Assembly (NCBI GenBank): GCA_963727825.1
Contig: CAVSHO010000011.1
Location: forward strand, 1-64,000
DNA from: Ignavibacteriota bacterium
GTDB lineage: Bacteria; Bacteroidota; Ignavibacteria; UBA10030
DNA length: 64,000 bases
Direction of reading: 5' to 3'
This document shows, in pieces, positions 1 to 27,256 of the stretch. The notes under the pieces were generated by a model that worked only from the letters and a program-made list of their open reading frames with translations, was not told the origin of the DNA and searched no databases. The translations under genes were made by a program, and so were the position numbers. The first letter of the stretch is position 1. Each line of letters begins with the position of its first letter.

Positions 1-176
1 ACGGACTGCGGCTAAGCTGCCGCACTGAGAATTTTAATGTTCACAAAACGAAACAAGTTCATGCTGAAAAGTTTATTATTAAAAACCGAAACCTATACTC
101 GCCATGCTTACCGTTACATGCCTGCCCGCCGTCTTTTGGGCGGGCTCATCCGGTCAGCTCGAGCCGCTGGTTAGCC
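1..176 (-). repeat. attC site 1 (truncated by window edge)
   Basis: GCTAAGCTGCCG ... CGGTCAGCTCGAGCCGCTGGTTAGCC. Confidence 0.9.
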
Positions 177-187
177 AGCGTTTGTAT

Positions 188-1016
188 TAACGCAGTAAAA
201 TAATTGTTCATTCAAATCTATTACCTATCATAAGCCGACATAAATAGACTCCGCTTGCATAATTTCCTGCATCCCATTTTCTTTGATATTACCGGCTGAA
301 AGATTTTCAGAAACTATTGTTGCAATTTCTCTTCCCAAAAAATCAATTATATCTAGTCGCACATATTCAGTATGTGACAATGAAAACTCAATTGTTGTAA
401 CTGGATTAAAAGGATTAGGATAATTTTGGTATAATCTAAAATTATTAAGAGTGAATTGATTCTGTTTTACCGATGTCGTATAACCATAATTAATTCCATT
501 GATGATACAACCAACTGCATCATAATGTTGATAATCCCAAGGTGGACATAAGTCGCAGTACATTATTGCACTTATTGGTCCAAATTTTTCGGATAAGGTA
601 GCTTCACCTCCCAATGAACCATAAAGTTGATAATGAATTATTCTCGTTTCCTCTCCAAACATTCTTATAGTATCAATATTATTTATGACAGCATAACTAA
701 AACTATAAAAGTAACCATCGAAATATGTTGTGTCTCCTTGTTTGCCATCTAATTTGTAAAATGGCACATCCTTAGAATTGGAAGAATTATAATAATAAAC
801 GAAATGTGAATCTACTCTTACATATTGACCACGAAAATAATCAGGTCGATTCAAAACATAATAGGTTTTACCATTTGCAAAAAGAGAATCAGAAACAACC
901 TTTAAAGCAGTCGCTGACGAATCGTATTGCCATTCATTTCCTATATTCAAAGGATAATATGGTTGTCCAAAAGTGATTTGAGCTAGGAATAAAAATAATA
1001 TTATAAAATATTTCAT
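188..1016 (-). pseudogene. Cassette gene: secreted protein with T9SS type A sorting domain, C-terminus frameshifted
   Basis: Signal peptide [21 protein letters not shown] motif; the expected [15 protein letters not shown] continues in another frame after ~290, then a TGA before TIILLR*. Confidence 0.7.
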
Positions 1017-1043
1017 ATTCCTTTCTTTTCTTTTACAAACGCT

Positions 1044-1202
1044 GGCTAACGGATGGCAAGTAAGCTGCGGCAACGAGAAGCCGCAAGTTGCTGAAAACGA
1101 AACAAGTTCATGCTGAAAAGTTTATTATTAAACATCTGAACCTCTATTAGCCATGCTTAACGTACTCACGCTCATTCCGTCAGCTTGAGTTGCTGGTTAG
1201 CT
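1044..1202 (-). repeat. attC site 2
   Basis: GGCTAAC...TAAGCTGCGG...CCGTCAGCTTGAGTTGCTGGTTAGCT. Confidence 0.95.
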
Positions 1203-2072
1203 GGCGCAAACAAATGTTTCAGAATGTTTCAAATTAAAAAAGTCATAAATATATTTGACATTGATGTCGTCTCTATATAAGACATATGCGTTGCCATCCC
1301 ATCTGCTCATAATTGCAAAATGAAGTTTATTCATATCAAGAGCTTTGAAATAATCCCAAAGTGCAACTTTGTCCTGTTTAATATGTGAGTGTATCCAGAC
1401 GCCTTGCAAATATTCTTTAGGCGAACGAGCGATAAATTTTTCGACTGTGTCCTTAAAGAGAATAGCCGAATTATTTATTGGAGGAGGAATTTGATTCACT
1501 CCAGCGTGAATGGAAGGAATTATTTGTTGCATATGTTCAAGCAAATCTTTTATACGATATTTGACATCTAAAAGGATTGGTGTATCAGATTTCGGTGTAA
1601 ACAACCAATCAATGGTTCGATTTCCTTCGCCGAGTCTTGGAATTTCATATTGTGGTACTACACCATCTTGTATACGAACCAACGGAGCCAATTCGGCAAG
1701 CGTTATTAGATGTTTAGACGGATCTTTTAATCTGTTAATAAAACTAAGAATTTCCGGTTCCGTCAAATGTTTTTTAATTGCTCGAATGCCCAAGTAAAAA
1801 TCTTCAATTTCGGGAAACTGTTCTGAACCAATAAGGATATAATCCTCTGGCATTCTATCAAAATAATCTCCGTACTCATAACACCACTTTTTTATTAGGT
1901 TATGGAAAAAGGCTGGTGTCATTTTGATTTCATTCGGCAATAAAATCAGAAGATCGTTTATTAGATCATCATGGTCACCTAAAGACTTGCCAAAAGAGAA
2001 AAAAGCTTTGTCAAGCGTGGTAAGACCAGTGTAAAATATCTCAGGCAAAGCAGCTAAAAGTGTCATGGTCAT
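1197..2072 (-). CDS. Cassette hypothetical protein, possible PD-(D/E)XK-like fold (copy 1)
   Basis: 291-aa ORF filling the cassette, stop inside attC; TIDWLF...ILLDVK motif; same sequence at 15311-16186. Confidence 0.8.
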   Translation of the reverse strand: MTMTLLAALPEIFYTGLTTLDKAFFSFGKSLGDHDDLINDLLILLPNEIKMTPAFFHNLIKKWCYEYGDYFDRMPEDYILIGSEQFPEIEDFYLGIRAIKKHLTEPEILSFINRLKDPSKHLITLAELAPLVRIQDGVVPQYEIPRLGEGNRTIDWLFTPKSDTPILLDVKYRIKDLLEHMQQIIPSIHAGVNQIPPPINNSAILFKDTVEKFIARSPKEYLQGVWIHSHIKQDKVALWDYFKALDMNKLHFAIMSRWDGNAYVLYRDDINVKYIYDFFNLKHSETFVCAS

Positions 2073-2095
2073 TTCCTTACTCAGTGATTTGCGCC

Positions 2096-2252
2096 AGCTA
2101 ACGGATGGCAACTAAGCTGCCGCGTGACCAATTTTAATGTTACACAAAACTAACTGAGTTTCAAGACGAATATTTTCCTCAACACAAAACCTCTAAGCGC
2201 AATGTTAAATAGTACCAACGCTCAATCGGTCAGCTTGAGTTGCTGGTTAGGC
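2096..2252 (-). repeat. attC site 3
   Basis: AGCTAAC...GGTCAGCTTGAGTTGCTGGTTAGGC. Confidence 0.95.
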
Positions 2253-2270
2253 AGCAGCATATTTTTGTGA

Positions 2271-2558
2271 TTACATTTCTTTTTTATTGGATTCTGATTC
2301 TCCAGCTTTCTGAACAATATTATTTGTGAAACGAACCGACAGCCAAAGGATAAAGAGAATGATAGCAAAAAGGAGAATCCAATCTGGATAGATACCAAAA
2401 GAAAAAAGTATAGTGAGCACAACAGTCAACACGGCTGTGTTCACCAATTGCTGAATCAAATTATACTTCCTTTTGGAATAGCGTGGAATTAGCTTGATCC
2501 AAGTCGCAAAGAGAGAAACAAGAATCGAAACTACAATTACTTCAAGTAAGAAGAACAT
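2271..2558 (-). CDS. Small cassette membrane protein
   Basis: 95 aa with about three hydrophobic stretches, fills the cassette. Confidence 0.7.
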   Translation of the reverse strand: MFFLLEVIVVSILVSLFATWIKLIPRYSKRKYNLIQQLVNTAVLTVVLTILFSFGIYPDWILLFAIILFILWLSVRFTNNIVQKAGESESNKKEM

Positions 2559-2622
2559 GAGAGTCTCCTAATATTCTGACACTGCTTGTTACAAACAGCT
2601 TACCTCAAGTTGTGTTGCTGCT

Positions 2623-2781
2623 GCCTAACGGACCGCAACTAAGCTGCGGCGTTGATAATTTTCGTAATGCAACCAACGAAACAAGTTCATGCTGAAAAGT
2701 TTATTATTAAACATCTGAACCTCTATTAGCCATGTTGATTGCACCCAGCTCCCAACCGTCAGCTTGAGTTGCTGGTTAGGC
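2623..2781 (-). repeat. attC site 4
   Basis: GCCTAAC...CCGTCAGCTTGAGTTGCTGGTTAGGC. Confidence 0.95.
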
Positions 2782-2795
2782 AGCATACTAAATAA

Positions 2796-2987
2796 TCAGA
2801 ATAGTTTTCGTATAAAAACCACAAGTAGAATCAATGCTATAAGAAGTATATACGAAACGGGTCGTGCACAATTTATAGTCCATCCGATTCCTACACTTTT
2901 AGGAACAAAATATCTGGAATCGCTCGGGTTGAAATAAAATATTCCCCACTTCCAGTTTTTGGGGTCTTTCTGAACATCGTCTTCCAT
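2796..2987 (-). CDS. DUF5808-like small membrane protein
   Basis: WKWGIFYFNPSD..FVPK..GIGWTIN motif plus C-terminal TM helix. Confidence 0.75.
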   Translation of the reverse strand: MEDDVQKDPKNWKWGIFYFNPSDSRYFVPKSVGIGWTINCARPVSYILLIALILLVVFIRKLF

Positions 2988-3016
2988 GTTATAATCCTAT
3001 TATTTGTGAGTATGCT

Positions 3017-3174
3017 GCCTAACGACTCGCGGCTAAGCTGCCGCGTTGAATAGTTTCGTGATGCACCCAAGGAAACAGGTTAACGCTATCAACCAAATTA
3101 TTAAGCACAAAACCTCTATCCGCAATGTTGATTGCTCCCACGCTCATTCGGTCAGCTTGAGCCGCTGGTTAGGG
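3017..3174 (-). repeat. attC site 5
   Basis: GCCTAAC...GGTCAGCTTGAGCCGCTGGTTAGGG. Confidence 0.95.
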
Positions 3175-3681
3175 CGCGTGTTTATCAATATCAGAGTTAA
3201 ATATATATTCTTCAATATTGCCACGAATACCACCATATATAATAGGAGCATAGAAAATAAGCGCTGCAACATCACCTGCCCATAACTCATCTGAATTATT
3301 AGAGCATAGTTTCAAGTAAATTATGCCAGCTATTCCACAACCTAAAGAACCAGCAACCAAGCCGGCAAATGCTCCATCAAAATGAAGACGTCTTTCAATT
3401 TTCTTAATGGCAACAAGCGGAAATGAGCTTTGCTTCAAATCGGGGAGAATTGTAAATGTGGCAGTTTCTTTTGAAAACATGACATTTTCAGCTCGAACTT
3501 GCTGATTATCGCGTAGGATAATTTTGACTGTTTTATCCTGAAGTTTCTGCTGGAGTTGATTAATAGTTATTGTATCTCTCTGGCTCTCGGTTGAATGCGT
3601 TACAACAATATATGTGCTGGTACAACCAATGTAGAATGCACTGCTAAATAAAAAGAGAATATGGAAGTAATATAATTTCAT
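3169..3681 (-). CDS. Cassette putative lipoprotein/membrane protein
   Basis: Lipobox-like YIGC, C-terminal glycine-rich hydrophobic helices; stop inside attC. Confidence 0.75.
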   Translation of the reverse strand: MKLYYFHILFLFSSAFYIGCTSTYIVVTHSTESQRDTITINQLQQKLQDKTVKIILRDNQQVRAENVMFSKETATFTILPDLKQSSFPLVAIKKIERRLHFDGAFAGLVAGSLGCGIAGIIYLKLCSNNSDELWAGDVAALIFYAPIIYGGIRGNIEEYIFNSDIDKHAP

Positions 3682-3692
3682 TTTTTCACGCG

Positions 3693-3850
3693 CCCTAACG
3701 GATTGCGGCTAAGCTGACCGCGTGACCAAATATAATATTGTACCCAACGAACTGAGTTTCAAGCTGAAAGCCTTAATAATAATACAAACCGTTACAAGCC
3801 ATGCGTAATGTACCAACGCTCATTCGGTCAGCTTGAGCCGCTGGTTAGCC
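3693..3850 (-). repeat. attC site 6
   Basis: CCCTAAC...GGTCAGCTTGAGCCGCTGGTTAGCC. Confidence 0.95.
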
Positions 3851-3857
3851 GGCAACC

Positions 3858-4469: not shown

Positions 4470-4482
4470 GTTTTTTGTTGCC

Positions 4483-4630
4483 GGCTAACGGACGGGCGCT
4501 AAGCTGCGGCGTTGATAACTTTCCAAACACACAAAACGAAATAGGTTCATTCTATCAACTTTCAATTAAACACAAAACCTATGCACGCAATGTAAATCGC
4601 ACCCAGCTCATTCCGTCAGCTTGAGCGCCT
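4483..4630 (-). repeat. attC site 7, interrupted by two IS110-family elements (remainder 7362-7371)
   Basis: GGCTAAC...CAGCTTGAGCGCCT, then IS sequence; CTGGTTAGGC resumes at 7362. Confidence 0.93.
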
Positions 4631-4670
4631 CGTATGTTGAGTCTGTGACACTTATATTTGTATCGTAATT

Positions 4671-4857
4671 CATTGGCAAAGTCATAGGAGAGATAGGAGC
4701 GTCTAGATATCTTCCCAGAAGAAGAATATCGTTAACCAGATACTTCTCCCTATGACTTTGTGCTTCTCCAGAATCTGAACAGTACTTTGAGATCCATACT
4801 TCTTGACGTGGAATCCCGTATAACGCACGAGTCTAGATCATACAGAAGCTGCCAATG
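4671..4857 (+). ncRNA. Predicted bridge RNA of IS-A (target loop plus donor loop)
   Basis: Closing stem CATTGGC/GCCAATG; stem CAAAGTCATAGG/CCTATGACTTTG enclosing GAGCGTCT and TAACCAG (match attC); stem GCTTCT/AGAAGC enclosing ACAGTACTT and AACGCACGAG (match circle junction). Confidence 0.85.
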
Positions 4858-4895
4858 TTTCTCTTTTCTTAACCTCTATTTCAAGGAGCTTTACT

Positions 4896-5981
4896 ATGAA
4901 TATCTTAAAACAAACCGTCGGTATCGATGTCTCCTACAAAACTTTCGATGCCAGATTCGGTACCATCGATACTCAACAAGAAATCAACCTATCCGCCTCT
5001 AAATCCTTTAAAAACTCACAGGCTGGATTCAAACTCTTCCTGCGATGGCTTATGAAATTTATCCTCTCTAATGATATTCCCCTCGTCTTTGTGATGGAAG
5101 CCACCGGTGTCTATTATGAACACCTCGCTCACTTCCTCCTTGAGCACGGTTATCACCTCGCCGTCGTTCTACCCAATAAAATAAGAAATTATGCCAAATC
5201 CCTCGAATCTAAATCCAAAACTGATCCTATCGATGCCGCTACTATTACTCGATTCGGACTTGAACGCAAACTCTCATTCTGGACTCCACCTTCAGATACT
5301 CTCAAAACCCTACGCGACTTATGCAGGGAATATCATTGCCTCAAAACTAATATCACACAAATTAAGAATCAACTCCACGCTCTCAAATCTTCTTTCAAGC
5401 CTCACAAAGAGTCTTTCAAACGCAAGACACAACTCCTCATATTTCTCGAACGTCAGGTATCGCTTATTAATAAAGAACTCCATGCATTAGTTAAGACCGA
5501 GCCTGATCTGGCCCAACACCTCAAGAATATCAAAACTGCCAAAGGTCTCGGCGATATTACCATTCTCACCGTTTTAGCTGAGACCCGATGCTTTGAACTC
5601 GTCACCAATCAAAAACAACTTACCAGCTACGCTGGGTTCGACATCGTCTTTAACGACTCCGGCTTGAAAAAAGGAAAAACCTCCATCTCCAAAAAAGGCA
5701 ATTCCTTTATCCGTAAAGCTCTCTTTATGCCTGCCCTCTCTGCCTGTCGGGCTAATCCTCAAATGAAAAAACTATATCAACGCCTTGTCGCTAAAGGCAA
5801 AAATAAAAAACTTGCCATCATTGCCGTCGCCCGTAAATTACTCTTACTGATTTACACTCTCTGGAAATCTAATTCTGTCTATATCCCCAATTATAAACCA
5901 TTGCTCTCGTTGTTGTCCCTGAACAAATTTAAATCATTCGCCCCTGCTTGTTCTTTGACATATTTTCTCTATCGCTCTTGA
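4896..5981 (+). CDS. IS110-family transposase/recombinase (IS-A)
   Basis: GIDVS, VMEATG, KTDPIDA (DEDD RuvC-like), NDSG serine loop, KKGNSFIRKAL, AIIAVARKLL; RBS AAGGAG. Confidence 0.95.
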   Translation: MNILKQTVGIDVSYKTFDARFGTIDTQQEINLSASKSFKNSQAGFKLFLRWLMKFILSNDIPLVFVMEATGVYYEHLAHFLLEHGYHLAVVLPNKIRNYAKSLESKSKTDPIDAATITRFGLERKLSFWTPPSDTLKTLRDLCREYHCLKTNITQIKNQLHALKSSFKPHKESFKRKTQLLIFLERQVSLINKELHALVKTEPDLAQHLKNIKTAKGLGDITILTVLAETRCFELVTNQKQLTSYAGFDIVFNDSGLKKGKTSISKKGNSFIRKALFMPALSACRANPQMKKLYQRLVAKGKNKKLAIIAVARKLLLLIYTLWKSNSVYIPNYKPLLSLLSLNKFKSFAPACSLTYFLYRS

Positions 5982-6081
5982 CTTTTATCACAGTACCTGG
6001 ATATTACAAAAAAGGAACCTCCCGATTTCGTATGTTTAAGATTATCAAGGTCATTAACCAACAAAATAAAAGGAGGTTCCC

Positions 6082-7083
6082 ATGTATTACTCAGGTATAG
6101 ATTTGCATTCAGATAATTCTTACATCACCACAATCGATGAGAGTGGCACAATCGTAAAACGACAACGCCTCGAGAATAACGACGAACTTGTTCTCGATTA
6201 CTTCCACTCTCTGCCCGGTCCTCATCAGGCAGTCGTCGAGTCTACAACAGGTTGGTATTGGCTCAACGATCTCCTCGGCGATAACGGCATCGAGCTTGTC
6301 CTTGCTCATGCCAAATATCTCAAAGCCATCAGCTATGCTAAAGTTAAAACAGATAAAGTCGATTCGCAAACTCTCGCTACACTTTTACGACAAGGCCTTA
6401 TTCCACAAGCACACAAGATCAGCCGTGAACTCCGTGGATTACGCGATACCATGCGCATCCGGCTTAGACTCGTTCAACAACGAACCGCTTGCCTGCTGCG
6501 TCTTTATAGCATTTATGCAAAATTTAACGGCTCTGTCCCTGATCCCTATCGCTTCCAGCTGGCTGTATTAGAGCATACACGCAATACCTTCAGCGATCAA
6601 ATCCTTGCCTTAGAAAAGTCTCTGCATCCTGTCCTGATCCCTAACGACGACATCCAACGACTCTTGAACATTCCAGGTATCGGCAAGCTCTCTGCATTTA
6701 CCATTTACTTAGAAATCGACGGCATAGAACGCTTTATCTCTGATAAACACTTTGTCTCCTATTGCCGTCTCGTGCCTGCTGCTGATAACTCCAATCGCAC
6801 TGTGCATCACCGCTCAAGTAAAGACGGCAATAAATATCTTAAAATCGCTTTCACTGATGCCGCTGTGCATGCCATTCAATTTTATCCTGAATACAAACGC
6901 TTCTATCAGAAATTAGCTCGGCGCTCTTGTGAAGCAACTGCTCGAACCGTCGTTGCAAAAGAACTTGCGAAAATTGTTTTCTATGTCTTAAAGAACAAAA
7001 CACAATATAAAGGTCTCAAAGGACAGCCGATCAGCCGGCATAAATCTCAGCAGTGGCCGCGCCTCTCAAGCCCGGATGCCTAA
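6082..7083 (+). CDS. IS110-family (IS1111-type) transposase
   Basis: GIDLH, VVEST, KTDKVDS (DEDD), IPGIG, SKDGNKYLK. Confidence 0.95.
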   Translation: MYYSGIDLHSDNSYITTIDESGTIVKRQRLENNDELVLDYFHSLPGPHQAVVESTTGWYWLNDLLGDNGIELVLAHAKYLKAISYAKVKTDKVDSQTLATLLRQGLIPQAHKISRELRGLRDTMRIRLRLVQQRTACLLRLYSIYAKFNGSVPDPYRFQLAVLEHTRNTFSDQILALEKSLHPVLIPNDDIQRLLNIPGIGKLSAFTIYLEIDGIERFISDKHFVSYCRLVPAADNSNRTVHHRSSKDGNKYLKIAFTDAAVHAIQFYPEYKRFYQKLARRSCEATARTVVAKELAKIVFYVLKNKTQYKGLKGQPISRHKSQQWPRLSSPDA

Positions 7084-7329
7084 CTGGTAATCTTTATTAC
7101 CTTCGCCTGGATTGGGAAGAGAGTGCGCTGTGCCGTGGTAATATCTGGAATATCTCGCTCAACGAGATAAGTCCCGCTTTCACCCCGGGATAAATCCGTA
7201 AACTGGTTTGGACGGCATTGCTCCGGTAATCGTCTGTCTATTTGATAGAGAACGCGGCATCGGCACGGGTTCGGTCGTCAATAATTGTCAATGAACTCTG
7301 CATTCCGTTTGTACGGAACGCATCGGGCG
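7070..7329 (+). ncRNA. Predicted seek/bridge RNA of IS-B (also in the other three copies)
   Basis: GCCTAACTGG and CGCCTGG match the attC target; GTAATATCTGG and TAAACTGG match the circle junction; stems GCCCGGATGC/GCATCGGGC and TGCCGT/ACGGCA. Confidence 0.8.
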
Positions 7330-7371
7330 TATTTTATCTACTTGACTCTTTCCTTTTTAAACTGGTTAGGC

Positions 7372-8271
7372 GCCGTTTTATTAGTAATGCAGAAATATTC
7401 TTAATGATCTGGCAAATCCTTCCAGATTCGGAAATAAAGTATTTGAGTCGATATTCATTTTACCTAGGTCACGAATAATATCTGAAAGTACAAGATCGTT
7501 TGGTACAATGAATTTGATTAATGGTGGCAATTCATCGCTTGATTCGGCTGTCTCAAATTTATCGATAGATAAATTAATTGCGTTCTGATCATCAAATTCA
7601 ACAGACGAATGATTTAATGTTCCGCTAATATTTTCGTTTAAATGTCGAATTAATAATGTTGGACAAGAAAAGTACCCTTTTGCATTGAATTTCGTTCGTT
7701 TAATTGTCTTGGTTAGTCAAGAATAACACCTTTTTTAGGATTTATTCATTTTGTAGCATCTAACAAATCGTTTAACTCAATATAATCATTTAAGATTTGG
7801 TCAAAGGGATTTTTGGGAATACAATTGGTTTTCAGAGTCCATACTGCAGCTTCATCATTCGCTTCTTCAAGTGCAAAAAATGATTGTCGATATAAAATGA
7901 ATAACTCAAAATTCGACTGAAACGAGCTTTGTCTACATAATATTGGATAAAAGCCACCCACTCTAAGAATGTCCGTTTCACTGGGTATGGATTAATAATA
8001 CTACCACGATGGCATTTTCTTCTTGAACCAATGAGATTACTTATTCTACCTTCATCTTGTACTTGTTCTGGCTAAGAATATCCTGATGTATTGATCCAGC
8101 CATCTCGTTCTAATGAGGACATAATATCCCAACTTGCGAAATTCTATTGACGCTCGAAATACCCAGTTGTGGAAATTACTATTGTGATGACACAAGCTTC
8201 TCTGAATATTTTATGTATTTCAGATACTTTTGATATTTAAAAATTTTGTAGCTACATAATTAATAGCTGGC
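7372..8271 (-). pseudogene. Degenerate or ORF-less cassette
   Basis: 900 bp between attC cores with only short ORF fragments. Confidence 0.55.
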
Positions 8272-8462
8272 GTCTAACGGACCGGCGCTAAGCTGCGGCA
8301 CTGATAAGTTTCAATTTGCTGAAAACGAAACAAGTTCATGCTGATAACCAAATTAATAAATCTCAAAGTTATAGGTACTAAAAACTGAATAACAAAAACG
8401 ACAACCCACCACTAGCAATGCTTAACTGTACCCACGCTCATTCCGTCAGCTTGAGCGCCTGG
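8272..8462 (-). repeat. attC site 8, interrupted by IS-B (remainder 9824-9833)
   Basis: GTCTAAC...CAGCTTGAGCGCCTGG then ATATTAC. Confidence 0.93.
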
Positions 8463-9827
8463 ATATTACAAAAAAGGAACCTCCCGATTTCGTATGTTTA
8501 AGATTATCAAGGTCATTAACCAACAAAATAAAAGGAGGTTCCCATGTATTACTCAGGTATAGATTTGCATTCAGATAATTCTTACATCACCACAATCGAT
8601 GAGAGTGGCACAATCGTAAAACGACAACGCCTCGAGAATAACGACGAACTTGTTCTCGATTACTTCCACTCTCTGCCCGGTCCTCATCAGGCAGTCGTCG
8701 AGTCTACAACAGGTTGGTATTGGCTCAACGATCTCCTCGGCGATAACGGCATCGAGCTTGTCCTTGCTCATGCCAAATATCTCAAAGCCATCAGCTATGC
8801 TAAAGTTAAAACAGATAAAGTCGATTCGCAAACTCTCGCTACACTTTTACGACAAGGCCTTATTCCACAAGCACACAAGATCAGCCGTGAACTCCGTGGA
8901 TTACGCGATACCATGCGCATCCGGCTTAGACTCGTTCAACAACGAACCGCTTGCCTGCTGCGTCTTTATAGCATTTATGCAAAATTTAACGGCTCTGTCC
9001 CTGATCCCTATCGCTTCCAGCTGGCTGTATTAGAGCATACACGCAATACCTTCAGCGATCAAATCCTTGCCTTAGAAAAGTCTCTGCATCCTGTCCTGAT
9101 CCCTAACGACGACATCCAACGACTCTTGAACATTCCAGGTATCGGCAAGCTCTCTGCATTTACCATTTACTTAGAAATCGACGGCATAGAACGCTTTATC
9201 TCTGATAAACACTTTGTCTCCTATTGCCGTCTCGTGCCTGCTGCTGATAACTCCAATCGCACTGTGCATCACCGCTCAAGTAAAGACGGCAATAAATATC
9301 TTAAAATCGCTTTCACTGATGCCGCTGTGCATGCCATTCAATTTTATCCTGAATACAAACGCTTCTATCAGAAATTAGCTCGGCGCTCTTGTGAAGCAAC
9401 TGCTCGAACCGTCGTTGCAAAAGAACTTGCGAAAATTGTTTTCTATGTCTTAAAGAACAAAACACAATATAAAGGTCTCAAAGGACAGCCGATCAGCCGG
9501 CATAAATCTCAGCAGTGGCCGCGCCTCTCAAGCCCGGATGCCTAACTGGTAATCTTTATTACCTTCGCCTGGATTGGGAAGAGAGTGCGCTGTGCCGTGG
9601 TAATATCTGGAATATCTCGCTCAACGAGATAAGTCCCGCTTTCACCCCGGGATAAATCCGTAAACTGGTTTGGACGGCATTGCTCCGGTAATCGTCTGTC
9701 TATTTGATAGAGAACGCGGCATCGGCACGGGTTCGGTCGTCAATAATTGTCAATGAACTCTGCATTCCGTTTGTACGGAACGCATCGGGCGTATTTTATC
9801 TACTTGACTCTTTCCTTTTTAAACTGG
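8463..9827 (+). mobile_element. IS1111-type element (IS-B) copy 2
   Basis: Same ends, protein and non-coding region as copy 1; CTGG junctions in attC. Confidence 0.95.
8544..9545 (+). CDS. IS1111-type transposase
   Basis: Protein identical to 6082-7083. Confidence 0.95.
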   Translation: MYYSGIDLHSDNSYITTIDESGTIVKRQRLENNDELVLDYFHSLPGPHQAVVESTTGWYWLNDLLGDNGIELVLAHAKYLKAISYAKVKTDKVDSQTLATLLRQGLIPQAHKISRELRGLRDTMRIRLRLVQQRTACLLRLYSIYAKFNGSVPDPYRFQLAVLEHTRNTFSDQILALEKSLHPVLIPNDDIQRLLNIPGIGKLSAFTIYLEIDGIERFISDKHFVSYCRLVPAADNSNRTVHHRSSKDGNKYLKIAFTDAAVHAIQFYPEYKRFYQKLARRSCEATARTVVAKELAKIVFYVLKNKTQYKGLKGQPISRHKSQQWPRLSSPDA

Positions 9828-12088: not shown

Positions 12089-12095
12089 TTTCTTT

Positions 12096-14082: not shown

Positions 14083-14847
14083 TTAAAAAAGTTTTCTAAA
14101 CAAGTCTTCATCATTCTCAAAAAGTCTATTAGCTAATTCATTCGTGTAGAACATATCAGGAATAAATTTTTGCGCTCGGACACGAATTCGGAAATTCGGA
14201 TTTGATACATTTACATCGAAAAGAATGAGCCCGATACCAAAAAGCATACAGAGAGATTCAATCCTGTCTAAATCTTCTGGAATAATTGTATTTGGTTCTA
14301 CAATGTACACCTTTGAACTAAATAGACGATAAGCTATAGCTTGGCCAAATGCAGTTATTGGTTCACGAGAGTCGATTTTTATTTCGGCAGATATTATTTC
14401 TGGTTGAAACTGAATAACATCTCTTCGCGAAGGTTTATAAGTCCCGATCACATCAGGTGTGCCCCACTTCTTTCCCAGAGAACTGCCTCCTAGAGCGGCA
14501 GCTTCAGTACATTCATCAAGGTCATTTTTTAACCAATTAGCGAACAATTTATAGAAGTCTTCTTCGTGTACGTTTGTTTCTTTCTCGGTTTCTGGAGGAA
14601 GTATTTTTTCTACTTCGATTTCTTCTTCAGTAGATAATCGGTATTTGAAAAGTCCTCTTGTAGGTTTATAGATTTCCTTACTTCTCGTATTATGTAAATC
14701 CCAAGAAGAGCCCTGAATTGTATTTAAAGGAGTATCTGGAAAAGCTTTTACAAGTGCACGATGTAAATCAGCGTACCTTAGACCGGTCGGATGTGATTTT
14801 AAAATTTCAACTGCCTTATCACGGATTTGTTCACGTTTAGATGGCAT
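14083..14847 (-). CDS. Winged-HTH-like domain fused to a PD-(D/E)XK nuclease-like domain
   Basis: Helical N-terminal domain, acidic linker, then EEDFY...PDVIG...AEIK...AFGQAIAY. Confidence 0.7.
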   Translation of the reverse strand: MPSKREQIRDKAVEILKSHPTGLRYADLHRALVKAFPDTPLNTIQGSSWDLHNTRSKEIYKPTRGLFKYRLSTEEEIEVEKILPPETEKETNVHEEDFYKLFANWLKNDLDECTEAAALGGSSLGKKWGTPDVIGTYKPSRRDVIQFQPEIISAEIKIDSREPITAFGQAIAYRLFSSKVYIVEPNTIIPEDLDRIESLCMLFGIGLILFDVNVSNPNFRIRVRAQKFIPDMFYTNELANRLFENDEDLFRKLF

Positions 14848-15157: not shown

Positions 15158-15316
15158 GCCTAACGGATGGCAAGTAAGCTGCGGCAACGAGAAGCCGCAA
15201 GTTGCTGAAAACGAAACAAGTTCATGCTGAAAAGTTTATTATTAAACATCTGAACCTCTATTAGCCATGCTTAACGTACTCACGCTCATTCCGTCAGCTT
15301 GAGTTGCTGGTTAGCT
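15158..15316 (-). repeat. attC site 12 (matches attC 2 apart from the core bases)
   Basis: Part of the duplicated cassette. Confidence 0.95.
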
Positions 15317-16186
15317 GGCGCAAACAAATGTTTCAGAATGTTTCAAATTAAAAAAGTCATAAATATATTTGACATTGATGTCGTCTCTATATAAGACATA
15401 TGCGTTGCCATCCCATCTGCTCATAATTGCAAAATGAAGTTTATTCATATCAAGAGCTTTGAAATAATCCCAAAGTGCAACTTTGTCCTGTTTAATATGT
15501 GAGTGTATCCAGACGCCTTGCAAATATTCTTTAGGCGAACGAGCGATAAATTTTTCGACTGTGTCCTTAAAGAGAATAGCCGAATTATTTATTGGAGGAG
15601 GAATTTGATTCACTCCAGCGTGAATGGAAGGAATTATTTGTTGCATATGTTCAAGCAAATCTTTTATACGATATTTGACATCTAAAAGGATTGGTGTATC
15701 AGATTTCGGTGTAAACAACCAATCAATGGTTCGATTTCCTTCGCCGAGTCTTGGAATTTCATATTGTGGTACTACACCATCTTGTATACGAACCAACGGA
15801 GCCAATTCGGCAAGCGTTATTAGATGTTTAGACGGATCTTTTAATCTGTTAATAAAACTAAGAATTTCCGGTTCCGTCAAATGTTTTTTAATTGCTCGAA
15901 TGCCCAAGTAAAAATCTTCAATTTCGGGAAACTGTTCTGAACCAATAAGGATATAATCCTCTGGCATTCTATCAAAATAATCTCCGTACTCATAACACCA
16001 CTTTTTTATTAGGTTATGGAAAAAGGCTGGTGTCATTTTGATTTCATTCGGCAATAAAATCAGAAGATCGTTTATTAGATCATCATGGTCACCTAAAGAC
16101 TTGCCAAAAGAGAAAAAAGCTTTGTCAAGCGTGGTAAGACCAGTGTAAAATATCTCAGGCAAAGCAGCTAAAAGTGTCATGGTCAT
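15311..16186 (-). CDS. Cassette hypothetical protein (copy 2 of 1197-2072)
   Basis: Identical translation. Confidence 0.8.
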   Translation of the reverse strand: MTMTLLAALPEIFYTGLTTLDKAFFSFGKSLGDHDDLINDLLILLPNEIKMTPAFFHNLIKKWCYEYGDYFDRMPEDYILIGSEQFPEIEDFYLGIRAIKKHLTEPEILSFINRLKDPSKHLITLAELAPLVRIQDGVVPQYEIPRLGEGNRTIDWLFTPKSDTPILLDVKYRIKDLLEHMQQIIPSIHAGVNQIPPPINNSAILFKDTVEKFIARSPKEYLQGVWIHSHIKQDKVALWDYFKALDMNKLHFAIMSRWDGNAYVLYRDDINVKYIYDFFNLKHSETFVCAS

Positions 16187-18114: not shown

Positions 18115-18310
18115 CCCTAACGGAACCGGCGCTAAGCTGCGGCGCTGAATAATTTTCGTGATGTGTCCAACGAAATGAGTTCACGCTGTTTCTTCCATTT
18201 TTCATAATGAACTTTACGCGCCATGCTTAACGTACGAGCCCGCCGACAATAGCTTTTTAGAAAAGCCGGCGGGCGACGCTCATTCCGTCGGCTTGAGCGC
18301 CTGGTTAGGC
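18115..18310 (-). repeat. attC site 14 (unoccupied perfect IS-B target)
   Basis: CCCTAAC...GCTTGAGCGCCTGGTTAGGC. Confidence 0.93.
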
Positions 18311-18316
18311 GCCACA

Positions 18317-19087: not shown

Positions 19088-19110
19088 ATCAATTATCCTC
19101 TATATGTGGC

Positions 19111-19590: not shown

Positions 19591-19619
19591 AAAATATCCT
19601 TTGTTTATTTTAGAATGCG

Positions 19620-19807: not shown

Positions 19808-21172
19808 ATATTACAAAAAAGGAACCTCCCGATTTCGTATGTTTAAGATTATCAAGGTCATTAACCAACAAAATAAAAGGAGGTTCCCATGTATTACTCA
19901 GGTATAGATTTGCATTCAGATAATTCTTACATCACCACAATCGATGAGAGTGGCACAATCGTAAAACGACAACGCCTCGAGAATAACGACGAACTTGTTC
20001 TCGATTACTTCCACTCTCTGCCCGGTCCTCATCAGGCAGTCGTCGAGTCTACAACAGGTTGGTATTGGCTCAACGATCTCCTCGGCGATAACGGCATCGA
20101 GCTTGTCCTTGCTCATGCCAAATATCTCAAAGCCATCAGCTATGCTAAAGTTAAAACAGATAAAGTCGATTCGCAAACTCTCGCTACACTTTTACGACAA
20201 GGCCTTATTCCACAAGCACACAAGATCAGCCGTGAACTCCGTGGATTACGCGATACCATGCGCATCCGGCTTAGACTCGTTCAACAACGAACCGCTTGCC
20301 TGCTGCGTCTTTATAGCATTTATGCAAAATTTAACGGCTCTGTCCCTGATCCCTATCGCTTCCAGCTGGCTGTATTAGAGCATACACGCAATACCTTCAG
20401 CGATCAAATCCTTGCCTTAGAAAAGTCTCTGCATCCTGTCCTGATCCCTAACGACGACATCCAACGACTCTTGAACATTCCAGGTATCGGCAAGCTCTCT
20501 GCATTTACCATTTACTTAGAAATCGACGGCATAGAACGCTTTATCTCTGATAAACACTTTGTCTCCTATTGCCGTCTCGTGCCTGCTGCTGATAACTCCA
20601 ATCGCACTGTGCATCACCGCTCAAGTAAAGACGGCAATAAATATCTTAAAATCGCTTTCACTGATGCCGCTGTGCATGCCATTCAATTTTATCCTGAATA
20701 CAAACGCTTCTATCAGAAATTAGCTCGGCGCTCTTGTGAAGCAACTGCTCGAACCGTCGTTGCAAAAGAACTTGCGAAAATTGTTTTCTATGTCTTAAAG
20801 AACAAAACACAATATAAAGGTCTCAAAGGACAGCCGATCAGCCGGCATAAATCTCAGCAGTGGCCGCGCCTCTCAAGCCCGGATGCCTAACTGGTAATCT
20901 TTATTACCTTCGCCTGGATTGGGAAGAGAGTGCGCTGTGCCGTGGTAATATCTGGAATATCTCGCTCAACGAGATAAGTCCCGCTTTCACCCCGGGATAA
21001 ATCCGTAAACTGGTTTGGACGGCATTGCTCCGGTAATCGTCTGTCTATTTGATAGAGAACGCGGCATCGGCACGGGTTCGGTCGTCAATAATTGTCAATG
21101 AACTCTGCATTCCGTTTGTACGGAACGCATCGGGCGTATTTTATCTACTTGACTCTTTCCTTTTTAAACTGG
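19808..21172 (+). mobile_element. IS1111-type element (IS-B) copy 3
   Basis: Same ends and protein; CTGG junctions in attC. Confidence 0.95.
19889..20890 (+). CDS. IS1111-type transposase
   Basis: Protein identical to 6082-7083. Confidence 0.95.
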   Translation: MYYSGIDLHSDNSYITTIDESGTIVKRQRLENNDELVLDYFHSLPGPHQAVVESTTGWYWLNDLLGDNGIELVLAHAKYLKAISYAKVKTDKVDSQTLATLLRQGLIPQAHKISRELRGLRDTMRIRLRLVQQRTACLLRLYSIYAKFNGSVPDPYRFQLAVLEHTRNTFSDQILALEKSLHPVLIPNDDIQRLLNIPGIGKLSAFTIYLEIDGIERFISDKHFVSYCRLVPAADNSNRTVHHRSSKDGNKYLKIAFTDAAVHAIQFYPEYKRFYQKLARRSCEATARTVVAKELAKIVFYVLKNKTQYKGLKGQPISRHKSQQWPRLSSPDA

Positions 21173-22215: not shown

Positions 22216-22255
22216 TTATTATTCCTTGAAAGAAAATTTAGTACAACAAAGTGGC

Positions 22256-22691: not shown

Positions 22692-22888
22692 ACCTAACGG
22701 ATGGCGGCTAAGCTGCCGCGTTGATAAATTTCAATAATGCACTAAACGAAACAAGTTCATGCAGAAAATAAAATTATTAAACACTAAACTTCTACACGCA
22801 ACGTTAATTGCACAAGCCCGCCGTATTTTGAATTTCAAATGTCACGGCGGGCGACGCTCATCCGGTCAGCTTGAGCCGCTGGTTAGGG
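22692..22888 (-). repeat. attC site 18
   Basis: ACCTAAC...CGGTCAGCTTGAGCCGCTGGTTAGGG. Confidence 0.95.
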
Positions 22889-22895
22889 CGCGTGA

Positions 22896-23649
22896 CTACT
22901 TTTTAGTTTTTATCCAATAACCAAATTTACTTCCATTCCAAGTGTAAGTGATACTTGGTAATGTGGGAGAATTCAAATTAGGGAAATCCTCTTGCCAATG
23001 ATCTATCTCTCCCCTGATTTCAATTATTCCATTTCGATTAACATCGACTAAATTATACCATCCATCAGTCGAGACAAGAATGGATTGATGCGTGATTGGA
23101 TCAATGTCATTAATAATCTTTCCGGTTTTACCGTTCCAGCTTAATATCCACAAATATGAAATACTCGATTCCCTTGTATTGCGAGTAAAATCTGTTTCTG
23201 TCTCAAGTATATCTACTTCGCCGTCGTTGTTTATATCTTTGGTAGCAAAGAGTTTACTGGCAAAATCAGCTTCTGTACCGGGATAATCATCCCATATAAT
23301 CTGTCCATTCTTATATATACCGGTTACGACACTATCCATAGTTTGTTTTTCTTTTTGTGACTTATACCAAGCTGAGAAAAGTTACACATCCTGCAAGCGT
23401 GTGATAAGGATCAGTTATCTTACCATGTAAAGAATTGGCAATGAGAGAATCCATTATATGAAAACTTACCTCGTAATTAGAACCATATTTGGAATGAACT
23501 GCTGTTTCAAGTGCAGAAAGAACAATTTCATTAGGATCATATTTTCTTTCCGACATAATCTGTGCAAACAAAACAGGAGAATACAATACTGAGAGTATTA
23601 TAATCTTTATTAAAGGATTACTGTTCATCATATACTCATTAATTCCCAC
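22896..23649 (-). pseudogene. Secreted protein with Ca-binding-like DxNxDG motifs, split into two out-of-frame ORFs
   Basis: Signal peptide in 23362-23649; DINNDGEVDI and DVNRNGIIEI in 22896-23339. Confidence 0.55.
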
Positions 23650-23652
23650 GCG

Positions 23653-23838
23653 CCCTAACGGATGGCGCTAAGCTGCGGCGTTGATAATTTTCAAATTGCT
23701 GACAACGAAATGAGTTCACGCTGATACCTTTAAAATATACTAAACCGTTACGCGCCATGCTTAACGTACAAGCCCGCCGACAATTGCTTTTTAGTAAAGC
23801 CGGCGGGCGACGCTCATTCCGTCAGCTTGAGCGCCTGG
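23653..23838 (-). repeat. attC site 19, interrupted by IS-B (remainder 25200-25209)
   Basis: CCCTAAC...CAGCTTGAGCGCCTGG then ATATTAC. Confidence 0.93.
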
Positions 23839-25203
23839 ATATTACAAAAAAGGAACCTCCCGATTTCGTATGTTTAAGATTATCAAGGTCATTAACCAAC
23901 AAAATAAAAGGAGGTTCCCATGTATTACTCAGGTATAGATTTGCATTCAGATAATTCTTACATCACCACAATCGATGAGAGTGGCACAATCGTAAAACGA
24001 CAACGCCTCGAGAATAACGACGAACTTGTTCTCGATTACTTCCACTCTCTGCCCGGTCCTCATCAGGCAGTCGTCGAGTCTACAACAGGTTGGTATTGGC
24101 TCAACGATCTCCTCGGCGATAACGGCATCGAGCTTGTCCTTGCTCATGCCAAATATCTCAAAGCCATCAGCTATGCTAAAGTTAAAACAGATAAAGTCGA
24201 TTCGCAAACTCTCGCTACACTTTTACGACAAGGCCTTATTCCACAAGCACACAAGATCAGCCGTGAACTCCGTGGATTACGCGATACCATGCGCATCCGG
24301 CTTAGACTCGTTCAACAACGAACCGCTTGCCTGCTGCGTCTTTATAGCATTTATGCAAAATTTAACGGCTCTGTCCCTGATCCCTATCGCTTCCAGCTGG
24401 CTGTATTAGAGCATACACGCAATACCTTCAGCGATCAAATCCTTGCCTTAGAAAAGTCTCTGCATCCTGTCCTGATCCCTAACGACGACATCCAACGACT
24501 CTTGAACATTCCAGGTATCGGCAAGCTCTCTGCATTTACCATTTACTTAGAAATCGACGGCATAGAACGCTTTATCTCTGATAAACACTTTGTCTCCTAT
24601 TGCCGTCTCGTGCCTGCTGCTGATAACTCCAATCGCACTGTGCATCACCGCTCAAGTAAAGACGGCAATAAATATCTTAAAATCGCTTTCACTGATGCCG
24701 CTGTGCATGCCATTCAATTTTATCCTGAATACAAACGCTTCTATCAGAAATTAGCTCGGCGCTCTTGTGAAGCAACTGCTCGAACCGTCGTTGCAAAAGA
24801 ACTTGCGAAAATTGTTTTCTATGTCTTAAAGAACAAAACACAATATAAAGGTCTCAAAGGACAGCCGATCAGCCGGCATAAATCTCAGCAGTGGCCGCGC
24901 CTCTCAAGCCCGGATGCCTAACTGGTAATCTTTATTACCTTCGCCTGGATTGGGAAGAGAGTGCGCTGTGCCGTGGTAATATCTGGAATATCTCGCTCAA
25001 CGAGATAAGTCCCGCTTTCACCCCGGGATAAATCCGTAAACTGGTTTGGACGGCATTGCTCCGGTAATCGTCTGTCTATTTGATAGAGAACGCGGCATCG
25101 GCACGGGTTCGGTCGTCAATAATTGTCAATGAACTCTGCATTCCGTTTGTACGGAACGCATCGGGCGTATTTTATCTACTTGACTCTTTCCTTTTTAAAC
25201 TGG
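23839..25203 (+). mobile_element. IS1111-type element (IS-B) copy 4
   Basis: Same ends and protein; CTGG junctions in attC. Confidence 0.95.
23920..24921 (+). CDS. IS1111-type transposase
   Basis: Protein identical to 6082-7083. Confidence 0.95.
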   Translation: MYYSGIDLHSDNSYITTIDESGTIVKRQRLENNDELVLDYFHSLPGPHQAVVESTTGWYWLNDLLGDNGIELVLAHAKYLKAISYAKVKTDKVDSQTLATLLRQGLIPQAHKISRELRGLRDTMRIRLRLVQQRTACLLRLYSIYAKFNGSVPDPYRFQLAVLEHTRNTFSDQILALEKSLHPVLIPNDDIQRLLNIPGIGKLSAFTIYLEIDGIERFISDKHFVSYCRLVPAADNSNRTVHHRSSKDGNKYLKIAFTDAAVHAIQFYPEYKRFYQKLARRSCEATARTVVAKELAKIVFYVLKNKTQYKGLKGQPISRHKSQQWPRLSSPDA

Positions 25204-25230
25204 TTAGGCGGCAAGAATTCTATTGATTTA

Positions 25231-25908
25231 TTATTTTTTGTAAGAAACCAATTGATAAATAATTTGTGCTTGTTTTTGTCCGATCGAATAAGTAATGTTT
25301 TCGGTTCTGATACCTTTGACACATCCAATCCCTGGTGCGTACCAGTCTTGTTCATTAACATCAATATGTTCACTATAATGTTGCTCGATACTGCCTTTAC
25401 GAGAAATTTTAACACAATCTTTAAAAGATCCAATAGGAATTGTTATGACTTCACTAATGGATTCAATTGTGGATTTAAGAATAAGCGTATCATTATGGGA
25501 GACGAGAAAAGCTTCACTTCTTGTTCTCCAGTTTATTCCTTGAACAATTGGATACTTTATTTCATAGCGAGGTGGTGAAAATATTATCGGTTCTGTATCT
25601 GCCATTGATTGCTTCGCAACTACAGCAATACCATTTTTATCTTCGACATAAAAAGCGAAAGAAGACTGTCCATTAATATCACTTTTCTGCACCTTGACTC
25701 GCATTCCATTAAGATCTCGATCTTCAAGATTTGATATTGTTAGACTCAGAGTATTTTTCTCACCAAATGAGTTTGTCGTCAACAGAGAATACGTCCATGA
25801 TCTTCCCTCATCTAAAGGGATGTAATCCGTACCAGATTTGGAACAACCAACAATGTTGAGAGTGAGAAAAGAGAGAAGAAAAATTAATATAGAAATATGT
25901 TTATTCAT
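25231..25908 (-). CDS. Cassette lipoprotein
   Basis: RBS GGAGG, lipobox IVGC, YIPL..G.SWTY and WYAPGIG.VK motifs. Confidence 0.8.
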   Translation of the reverse strand: MNKHISILIFLLSFLTLNIVGCSKSGTDYIPLDEGRSWTYSLLTTNSFGEKNTLSLTISNLEDRDLNGMRVKVQKSDINGQSSFAFYVEDKNGIAVVAKQSMADTEPIIFSPPRYEIKYPIVQGINWRTRSEAFLVSHNDTLILKSTIESISEVITIPIGSFKDCVKISRKGSIEQHYSEHIDVNEQDWYAPGIGCVKGIRTENITYSIGQKQAQIIYQLVSYKK

Positions 25909-25938
25909 ATTAACCTCCGAGTTTTGAAAACGTTTGCC

Positions 25939-26132
25939 GCCTAACGGATGGCGGATAAGCTGCCGCACTGATAACTTTCGAAATGCACTAAACGAACCAA
26001 GTTCGCGCTGAAAACGAAATTTATTATACTAAAGTTATGAGTCCTAAAAATGTAATAATAAAAACCTAAACCCACCATTAGCCATGAATTTTGCAGTGCG
26101 CTCATTCGGTCAGCTTGAGCCACTGGTTAGGC
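25939..26132 (-). repeat. attC site 20
   Basis: GCCTAAC...GGTCAGCTTGAGCCACTGGTTAGGC. Confidence 0.93.
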
Positions 26133-26158
26133 AGCGAAATATTTATGTTGAATAAAAT

Positions 26159-26662
26159 TTATGGATGAGTAATGCGATCAATTTCATTTTCAAATTCTCG
26201 TAATTCCTCAGGAGCCTCAAATGCCTTTAATTCTTTATCTGGTCCATAAGATCGGAAATAATCAACAACTGACTTTATGAGATTGCCAATTTTAATCGTT
26301 ACAATGTTCGTAGGTAGATCTGAAACCGAAACAGTAAGTGTGTCGATTAAACCATTTTTATTTTTTCGTATTATTTTTCCCTCGGCATAAGCTGGTTTCA
26401 GTGAGAAGATTCCAATTTCCTTAGCCCTTTGAAATAGATATGCCACGGAATCTTTTGAAATTTTAAAAGATCGCTTATCAGCTTCTACATTAGATAGAGT
26501 ATCTAGATATTCGACCGTTCCTGTAGAATATACTGTTACAGAATAACCTCCAGGCGGGCCATAACCACCTCTGCGTTCTAATTTAATAAAATCCGAATCT
26601 GGTTGTTGAATTTGCAAACCCAAAAGAACAAGGTTAATTAATAACTGTGATAAGATATTCAT
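26159..26662 (-). CDS. Cassette hypothetical protein (DUF6438-like)
   Basis: IKLERRGGYG...YSVTVYSTGTVEY, SDLP, PEELREFENEID. Confidence 0.65.
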   Translation of the reverse strand: MNILSQLLINLVLLGLQIQQPDSDFIKLERRGGYGPPGGYSVTVYSTGTVEYLDTLSNVEADKRSFKISKDSVAYLFQRAKEIGIFSLKPAYAEGKIIRKNKNGLIDTLTVSVSDLPTNIVTIKIGNLIKSVVDYFRSYGPDKELKAFEAPEELREFENEIDRITHP

Positions 26663-26685
26663 CAGGTTCCTCTTTGTATTTCGCT

Positions 26686-26839
26686 GCCTAACGGACCGGC
26701 ACTAAGCTGCGGCGTGATCAAATATCAAATTGCACCAACGAAACGAGTTCACGCTGAATATTTTGCTCTTGCAATTGACCGTTATGGGCAATGTTAATTG
26801 TACCACGCTCACCCCGTCAGCTTGAGTGCCTGGTTAGGC
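26686..26839 (-). repeat. attC site 21
   Basis: GCCTAAC...CCGTCAGCTTGAGTGCCTGGTTAGGC. Confidence 0.95.
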
Positions 26840-26863
26840 GGCAACCCATTCTTTAAAATGAAC

Positions 26864-27085
26864 TTATTTCTTTTTTCTTTCAATACGGATTCCAAGCTTT
26901 GTTAAACCCGACTTTTGAAATTGTTCTAACGCATCTCTTGAAAACTCAAATCGTTCATCATTTTTCAAAATGATTATTTGGAGTGCTCCATTGGAATCAT
27001 AAGTAGTGTCTTTGATTCCGAACTGACGAATCCTCTCTTGCACAAAGCTCCAATTATCAATTGTGACTTTCAAATTAGTTCTCAA
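26864..27085 (-). CDS. Small cassette hypothetical protein
   Basis: 73-aa ORF (TTG start) filling the cassette. Confidence 0.6.
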   Translation of the reverse strand: MRTNLKVTIDNWSFVQERIRQFGIKDTTYDSNGALQIIILKNDERFEFSRDALEQFQKSGLTKLGIRIERKKK

Positions 27086-27102
27086 ATTATAATAAAGTTG
27101 CC

Positions 27103-27256
27103 GCCTAACGGACCGGCGCTAAGCTGCGACGATGAAAACTTTCAACATGCACCAAACGAAATGAGTTCACGCAGTATCTTTCTAATTCCACAAGAACTTT
27201 ATACGCCATGAATTTTGTACCACGCCCATTTCGTCAGCTTGAGCGCCTGGTTAGGT
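27103..27256 (-). repeat. attC site 22 (first cassette; unoccupied GAGCGCCTGG variant)
   Basis: GCCTAAC...CGTCAGCTTGAGCGCCTGGTTAGGT. Confidence 0.95.

Follow-up and report, generated by a model that had tools for sequence, protein, structure and literature searches.

The IS1111-attC group of insertion sequences (IS), with ISPa21, ISPst6 and ISKpn4, is reportedly the subject of Tetu & Holmes 2008 and Post & Hall 2009. The present analysis concerns two IS, IS-A and IS-B, that interrupt attC sites in a chromosomal integron cassette array of an Ignavibacteriota bacterium. The whole stretch of DNA analyzed, 64,000 nucleotides (G000:C11:1-64000), is called the window. We propose that RNA-guide matching of three bases in the attC L″ box, the triplet, very probably determines which attC sites IS-B and IS-A occupy. 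Among described systems, members of the IS1111-attC group are reported to insert at a single defined position close to the 5′ end of attC sites described as "certain" or "distinct", and to lie antisense to the cassettes (PMC3001079, PMC11187229). According to Siddiquee et al. 2024 (PMC11187229), an IS1111-type seekRNA has one stretch per target strand, with the top-strand match first, an order that is reversed in the IS110 type. The same paper describes the seekRNAs of the ISPa21/ISPst6/ISKpn4 group as matching attC. For IS621, Durrant et al. 2024 (PMC11208160) describe a low tolerance of mismatches, with a natural rG:dT exception. Group IIC-attC introns are also described as homing to the attC 5′ end, antisense to cassette transcription (PMC3001079). 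These introns are ribozyme/reverse-transcriptase retroelements, not DEDD transposases, and are unrelated in sequence to IS-A and IS-B.

IS-B resembles the IS1111-attC group in its 3′ non-coding region, its subterminal inverted repeats and its antisense insertion near the attC 5′ end. Like seekRNA systems, it has predicted guides in the order top strand, then bottom strand, which meet at the insertion point; here, this arrangement is known from sequence and covariation. The differences are as follows. The IS1111-attC group belongs to Proteobacteria, whereas the host of IS-B is Ignavibacteriota-like; the sites that IS-B uses are of a long attC type (about 145–220 bp); and the IS-B family has a series of guide alleles that partitions the attC variants. 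The IS-B transposase is ≤35% identical to any plasmid-borne IS110-family protein (best tblastn match among plasmid records). IS-B would work like ISPa21, ISPst6 and ISKpn4, to which it is likened by organization and target; given the low transposase identity, it is unlikely to be closely akin to them. IS-A, with its 5′ non-coding region and CT core, resembles IS621 and other IS110-type bridge-RNA recombinases. As in IS621, its left guide covers bases left of the core, and its right guide covers the core plus the right flank. In contrast to IS621, the target of which is the REP element, IS-A targets attC, and guide–flank matching in its family is looser (8/16). The rG:dT exception of IS621 finds a parallel in the U-G and G-T pairs at IS-A and IS-B sites, and the IS-B family seems looser than IS621 at positions −6 and −7 of the target. 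The array, the elements and two of its empty sites are as follows.

1–27256, − strand: integron cassette array with 22 attC sites, recognized from repeat families D1, D8 and D10, open reading frames (ORFs), a site table and a fold
4631–5996, + strand: IS-A, IS110-type; 5′ non-coding region 4631–4895, transposase 4896–5981, copies of the CT core at 4629–4630 and 5997–5998
6001–7365, + strand: IS-B copy 1, transposase 6082–7083; directly after IS-A, in the attC starting at 4477
8463–9827, + strand: IS-B copy 2, transposase 8544–9545, 3′ non-coding region 9546–9827; in the attC 8266–8462 / 9828–
19808–21172, + strand: IS-B copy 3, transposase 19889–20890; in the attC starting at 19614
23839–25203, + strand: IS-B copy 4, transposase 23920–24921; in the attC starting at 23646
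18118–18310, + strand: empty CGC attC, triplet 18298–18300, predicted insertion point after 18304
27106–27256, + strand: empty CGC attC, triplet 27244–27246, predicted insertion point after 27250, right flank GTTAGGT

The cassette ORFs are all on the − strand, and the + strand of the window is the attC bottom strand. On the + strand, each of the 22 repeats within 1–27256 has R′ at its left end (GCCTAACGG...CTAAGCTG) and L″-R″ at its right end (...CAGCTTGAG-nnn-CTGGTTAGGC). The GAG-nnn-CTGG segment is the L″ box, adjoining R″, and nnn is the triplet. GCCTAAC ... GTTAGGC, in agreement with the R″/R′ consensus (RYYYAAC / GTTRRRY), is found in the 22 sites. Paired L boxes and extrahelical bases are seen in a single-stranded DNA fold of 27100–27258: its two arms pair, the triplet is matched with GCG across the stem, and one G and one T bulge from the L″-R″ arm.

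The attC site tables come from paired-arm scans, which replaced a loose regular-expression scan that gave mostly noise. The motif GAGNNNCTGG occurs 26 times in the window, versus 3.8 occurrences expected from shuffles, and 22 of the occurrences are on the + strand in 1–27256. The one at 14730 (GAGTATCTGG) lies within an ORF, without an opposite arm, and was rejected as an attC, leaving 21; the site at 4617–4630, where IS-A comes after GAGCGCCT, was added, for a total of 22. Their triplets are TTG (6), CCG (6), CGC (6), TGC (2), CGA (1) and CCA (1), which are exactly the counts given in a preliminary description of the window. Six further sites of the same genome lie outside the window: CCG, an empty CGC and two CAC on contig C12, a TTG on C1, and a CAC on C6. 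The preliminary description also had the opposite arm usually covary so as to keep the hairpin. This holds for the genome: of its 26 two-armed sites, all but the CGA and CCA sites, i.e., 24, have a triplet exactly complementary to the opposite arm. Compensated L-box variation is general in attC sites, with or without such IS.

Four attC sites are occupied, and every one is a CGC site. In the window, four of the six CGC sites hold an IS versus none of the 16 others (p = 15/7315 = 0.00205), which reproduces the earlier estimate of about 0.002. For the G000 genome as a whole, the figures are 4/7 for CGC and 0/21 for other triplets (p = 0.0017). The four IS-B copies, each of 1365 bp, are 100% identical yet flanked by different cassettes, and thus represent separate insertions. 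Their insertion point is fixed, CTGG/TTAGG (the slash marks the junction), and in one orientation, as it is in nine copies from a second genome described below. The point separates L″ from R″ and adjoins the 3′ end of the upstream ORF; the IS are on the + strand and the ORFs on the − strand. There is no true target duplication: the xTGG at the right end varies among relatives (C/G/A/U), while the target stays CTGG.

Three CGC sites are empty. The two listed above had been put forward as the next targets, and both indeed offer the full 7-nt guide match. In the second of these, the 27241 site, there is a T for C at the final position of the right match, which would give an rG:dT pair. The third predicted target is at G000:C12:74445-74458. 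Each of the three differs from the four occupied sites at one upstream base (−15 or −21). These differences were considered as a cause of the emptiness and rejected: the relatives L078 and L174 occupy sites with G at −15, and pairing ends at −8.

The IS-B transposase has the domains DEDD_Tnp_IS110 (PF01548, E = 6e-17) and Transposase_20 (PF02371, E = 1e-18), and matches NF033542, "IS110 family RNA-guided transposase", with 169.5 bits (cut-off 140). The gene is preceded by 81 nt of non-coding DNA (8463–8543) and followed by 282 nt (9546–9827), and a 9-bp subterminal inverted repeat, AAAAAGGAA, lies 7 nt from each end. To judge by the 3′ non-coding region, the subterminal repeats and the fixed insertion point, IS-B is an IS1111-type element. 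Its predicted guide segments, given for copy 2, are as follows.

9540–9546, + strand: target guide GCCUAAC, complementary to the top strand of GTTAGGC, the R″ box on the right side of the insertion point
9566–9574, + strand: target guide CGCCUGG plus AU, in the sense of the left flank CGC-CTGG and the first two IS bases
9600–9606, + strand: donor guide GUAAUAU, complementary to the left end ATATTAC; conserved in alignment A1
9661–9670, + strand: donor guide UAAACUGGUU (DNA TAAACTGGTT), in the sense of the right end and the first flank bases

The GCCUAAC segment overlaps the transposase stop codon and is on the 5′ side of an internal loop. The CGCCUGG segment (9566–9572) is the one that would pair with the bottom strand. 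It lies 3′ of the top-strand match, and both matches come together at the insertion point. Among 18 aligned relatives, the target segments make up the two sides of one internal loop. The stem closing this loop shows 2, 4, 7, 8 and 3 double (compensatory) changes at its five pairs, and the inner hairpin also covaries. The donor-guide base before TGG covaries with the right end in relatives (AAAC/G/A/U-TGG). We infer that the IS-B RNA is transcribed and bound by the transposase.

The IS-A transposase likewise matches the Pfam families DEDD_Tnp_IS110 and Transposase_20, and scores 211 bits with NF033542. Its 5′ non-coding region, of 265 nt, and its CT core mark IS-A as an IS110-type element by organization. 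The predicted target guides lie in that region.

4697–4704, + strand: left-target guide GAGCGUCU (DNA GAGCGTCT), in the sense of GAGCGC-CT, with U facing a bottom-strand G; found as a k-mer match
4733–4739, + strand: right-target guide UAACCAG, complementary to CTGGTTA of the intact attC; invariant in 16 relatives

Both are within a loop closed by CAUAGGAGAG/CUUCUCCCUAUG (structure judged by eye), and the sequence at the left-guide position of the loop varies among relatives. Junctions in the IS-A family read ...CT/CG... and ...AC/CTGG (16 relatives). The guide order is reversed relative to IS-B.

The proposed mechanism is as follows. Two IS110-family RNA-guided IS would insert at the L″-R″ end of attC, antisense to the cassettes. 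IS-B would encode a bridge or seek RNA just after its transposase gene. In an internal loop of this RNA, GCCUAAC would pair with the R″ box (GTTAGGC) on the top strand, and CGCCUGG with the left flank (CGC-CTGG) on the bottom strand. In IS-A, an equivalent loop upstream of the gene (GAGCGUCU, UAACCAG) would direct insertion 2 bp further left, at the CT core. The triplet falls inside the part of attC that the guides of both elements would pair with (9566–9572 in IS-B, 4697–4704 in IS-A), as the preliminary description had it. The guide-contacted attC positions are constant apart from these three L″ bases, so the triplet would be the sole feature by which the IS tells sites apart. A guide reading CGC would lead to CGC sites, and TTG, CCG and other sites would be spared. 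Guide-matched occupancy is the behavior expected of RNA-guided elements of this kind, and we infer that pairing, rather than later selection, sets the occupancy pattern.

Tabulation of variant versus occupancy, proposed earlier for related genomes, was carried beyond G000 and gave a reciprocal pattern in a second genome and guide–flank agreement over 62 relatives. The second genome, G015, consists of one contig and belongs to the same genus. An IS with 83% identity to IS-B is present there in nine copies, each of which has the guide UCGCUGG. A relaxed scan over 16 regions found 110 empty attC sites, with the triplets CGC (58), TTG (19), CCG (16), TGC (6), CAC (3), CGT (3), CTG (2), and TTT, GCG and ATC (1 each). 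The sites occupied by the nine copies are TTG (5), CCG (3) and TGC (1). None is in a CGC site (0/58), though CGC is the commonest triplet (58/119). The distribution has p = 0.0018, or p = 0.0035 when two identically flanked CCG copies are counted once. A hand count with the exact pattern gave 46 CGC among 93 sites, and all of the CGC sites were empty.

Two observations on this genome are added here. The attC sites of its 3.6 Mb chromosome, more than 110, are scattered in at least a dozen clusters. A relative of IS-A occupies a CGC site (~3542252) despite a CCG guide of its own.

The agreement between guide and flank was then assessed across the IS-B family. The set was drawn from 160 loci in genome and metagenome collections. 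It takes in copies with the left end ATATTA and a recognizable guide, i.e., 73 copies with 62 unique flank-plus-guide pairs. Copies whose locus lacked a guide were excluded, as were remoter relatives whose ends differ. Agreement means an exact or wobble pair. As the sequences share ancestry and there may be chimeras among the contigs, the permutation results below are not clean probabilities. Of the 62 pairs, 59–62 agree at each of the positions −1 to −4, 54 agree at −5, 38 at −6, 48 at −7 and 2 at −8. The triplet (−7 to −5) is without mismatch in 31 of the 62 pairs; 5000 permutations averaged 11.1 such pairs and never exceeded 21. When the pairs are reduced to 30 distinct guide/target combinations, 9 match versus 4.0 expected, a number reached by 33 of 5000 permutations; the observed mean mismatch of the 30 is reached by none. 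The guide alleles in the family are CGC, UCG, CAC, GCG, CGA, UGA and CCG.

Several findings weigh against guide matching as a strict rule, and they are gathered here. The 62 pairs of the family set include 18 with one mismatch, 11 with two and 2 with three. The guide UCG (15 pairs) is found in TTG (7), CCG (5), TGC (2) and CGC (1) sites. A CAC guide occurs at a CGC site (L067), and GCG guides occur at TTG sites (L066, L188). The preliminary description had named IS-B in TTG or CCG sites elsewhere as the case that would speak against it. Four of the five CGCC-guide relatives other than IS-B are in CGC sites, as expected, and the fifth, L189, is in a TTG site, which is the very case named. L189 most resembles UCG-guide lineages in its body but other lineages in its 3′ region, and it may represent a mosaic element or a chimera of contig assembly. 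In the IS-A family, a hand count of 16 guide/flank pairs, many of them from truncated copies, gave 8 that are compatible, 5 with one mismatch and 3 with two.

The data from G000 have weak points as well. IS-A and IS-B copy 1 are in tandem inside one attC, and the left flank of IS-B there is TAC-CTGG, the end of IS-A. It follows that this IS-B is perhaps not an independent choice of a CGC site, and counting three IS-B events instead of four gives p = 0.011. A later arrival of IS-B would have left its left guide with one mismatch and one G-T pair, and a later arrival of IS-A would have left its right guide with one mismatch. Occupancy of TGC plus CAC sites (0/5) does not differ significantly from that of CGC sites (4/7), so that within G000 the importance of −7 and −6 cannot be shown. 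G000 is a 14-contig assembly with 6.55% contamination, and the array ends at a contig edge. Six public sequencing runs were found in a search with the stretch, none holding more than 8% of the sampled words. In Rfam, no bridge-RNA family matches the predicted RNAs.

The explanation that comes next after guide matching, target-site escape or an arms race, was raised as a possibility in the preliminary description, and we consider it unlikely. In the form weighed here, it holds that compensated L″/L′ variants remain substrates of the integron integrase (IntI), spread by dodging the resident guide, and that IS pressure keeps the polymorphism; non-matching variants were thought invisible to the guides. 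The compensated triplets in 24 of 26 sites fit such an escape, with the proviso that compensation is found in attC sites whether or not an IS is near. The share of CGC is indeed lower where the CGC-guide IS resides, 7/28 in G000 versus 58/119 in G015, the guide of which is UCG (p = 0.033), and TTG plus CCG differ in the predicted direction (14/28 versus 43/119, p = 0.20). However, this is a comparison of two genomes, and the sites within one array are not independent. IS repeats break assemblies, which would cost G000 CGC sites, and deletions or recombination between IS copies would deplete matched sites too. The variants CGC, TTG, CCG, TGC and CAC are common to both genomes. They were thus carried with cassettes and not made in the G000 array, and there is no evidence of a direction of change. 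Nor is any variant safe at the level of the family, since the family holds guides for CGC, CCG, CGA, CAC and GCG. The claim of invisibility has to be given up: insertions with one mismatch are common (18/62; UCG in TTG 7/15), and two or three mismatches are found in 13 of 62 pairs.

A broader form of this idea, which we rate slightly lower still, is co-evolution, whereby cassettes with rare triplets avoid immobilization by the resident IS, and new guide alleles arise among the IS in response. If true, the cassette pool would be kept polymorphic by negative frequency dependence, and the lower share of the matched variant in G000 and G015 would be its first trace.

Guide matching itself could be apparent if IS-B entered all variants and the copies outside CGC were later lost by selection or excision, e.g., where cassettes are needed or mobile. 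Decay of IS does occur (a remnant is found at G000:C11:97829-97957), and nothing direct favors such loss. It leaves unexplained why the variant that is kept is that of the guide, why it shifts with the guide in G015, and why guide and flank covary family-wide. We regard it as improbable. Shared ancestry, in which IS-B and a CGC attC were copied together by segmental duplication and the four sites stem from one event, is more improbable yet. The attC sites at 19614 and 23646 are alike (D7, 97%, a stretch that includes IS sequence), and two CCG copies in G015 have both flanks in common. On the other hand, the right flanks of all four G000 copies diverge from the sixth base, the neighboring ORFs are not alike, and the upstream part of the attC at 8266 is different as well. 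Chance placement among attC sites, to which the small numbers (three or four events) might appeal, is hardly credible given p values of about 0.002–0.011 in G000 and of 0.002–0.0035 in the opposite direction in G015, and a family result reached in 0/5000 permutations.

Guide matching of the triplet, the reading that we favor, bears on known systems in several ways. What is new is the host group, the use of the same attC bases by both IS110 branches, and a guide-allele series that divides the attC variants. Literature searches of titles and passages found no link of attC L-box variants to guide matching and no description of such IS in Ignavibacteria. Bridge- or seek-RNA targeting would here separate near-identical natural sites by three bases, with two guide variants splitting one site family. 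RNA-guided IS that home to attC would extend to Ignavibacteriota-like genomes, where the IS1111 and IS110 types have settled on the same few attC bases. If an IS inside attC blocks its folding, as we presume, then the guide would allow one to predict the cassettes that an IS fixes in place or fuses. The guide alleles CGC, UCG, CAC, GCG, CGA, UGA and CCG provide material for working out the mismatch rules of an IS1111-type recombinase.

The setting of the array is as follows. The closest named relatives of the host are metagenome-assembled genomes (MAGs) of Ignavibacteriota / Ignavibacteriaceae. The integrase gene diverges from the array.

29683–30837, + strand: intI, integron integrase, divergent from the array; TIGR02249 447 bits (cut-off 265), Pfam Phage_integrase and SAM_4

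The TIGR02249 profile match makes the product an IntI-type tyrosine recombinase. With intI on the + strand and the cassette ORFs on the − strand, this is an integron array read leftwards. Because the window starts at a contig end that falls within an attC, part of the array is missing. The segment from the last attC to intI (27270–29556) holds four − strand genes: one for a GNA1162-like lipoprotein, then two small ORFs, and one for a CsgG-like protein. It may be a single large first cassette or non-cassette DNA. Within the array, a 300-nt duplication with 100% identity (1046–1345 / 15160–15459, family D13) comprises an attC and the beginning of the next cassette.

Further features of the elements were noted. 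A left-end hairpin of IS-B, GGAACCTCC ... GGAGGTTCC (8476–8546, and in the other copies too), would cover the ribosome-binding site of the transposase gene. A sub-threshold Rfam match to Ms_IGR-7 on the − strand of this hairpin (34.5 bits, gathering score 45) was treated as chance. TTGACT is found near the right end of both IS-B (9780–9827 + 8463–8475) and IS-A (5965–5996 + 4631–4645). A circle junction would place it 17 nt from GATATT in IS-B or from TATGTT in IS-A, making it a possible junction promoter. In the tandem, the TTGACT of IS-A is 17 nt from the ATATTA of IS-B. The same tandem as at 4631–7365 is seen on a metagenome contig (L190), where a CAC-guide relative of IS-B lies directly after the right end of an IS-A (…CACAGTAC-CTGG/ATATTACC).

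Among the relatives, L070, a second IS-B-like type in the L057-L065 record, has a left flank that ends in GAGTTGTTAG instead of ...CTGG and the right flank TTCGG; it was entered as a two-mismatch pair. A single-base bulge could be drawn that reconciles the guide UCGC with TTG, and the guide GCGC with CGA or CGC, but this is speculation and was not used. In L080-L136, relatives with 55% identity, the GGATTGGGA guide motif is kept and attC-like sites of other types are occupied; one example, with about ten copies in one MAG, is ...AAATTGCATTG/ with the guide UUUGCAUUG. As these distant relatives are also at attC-like sites, homing to attC is perhaps old in the IS-B branch. Six genomes (G019, G040, G013, G001, G004 and G012) have many short matches to just the last 40–100 nt of IS-B; these may be solo right ends or decayed copies, and they are widespread among relatives. 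In G000 itself, outside the window, L038 (G000:C11:97829-97972) consists of an attC left arm followed by only ~60 nt of an IS-B-like right end. Its right flank is identical, over the 14 bases compared, to that of the G015 copy L058, and it looks like a decayed IS at a site common to the two genomes.

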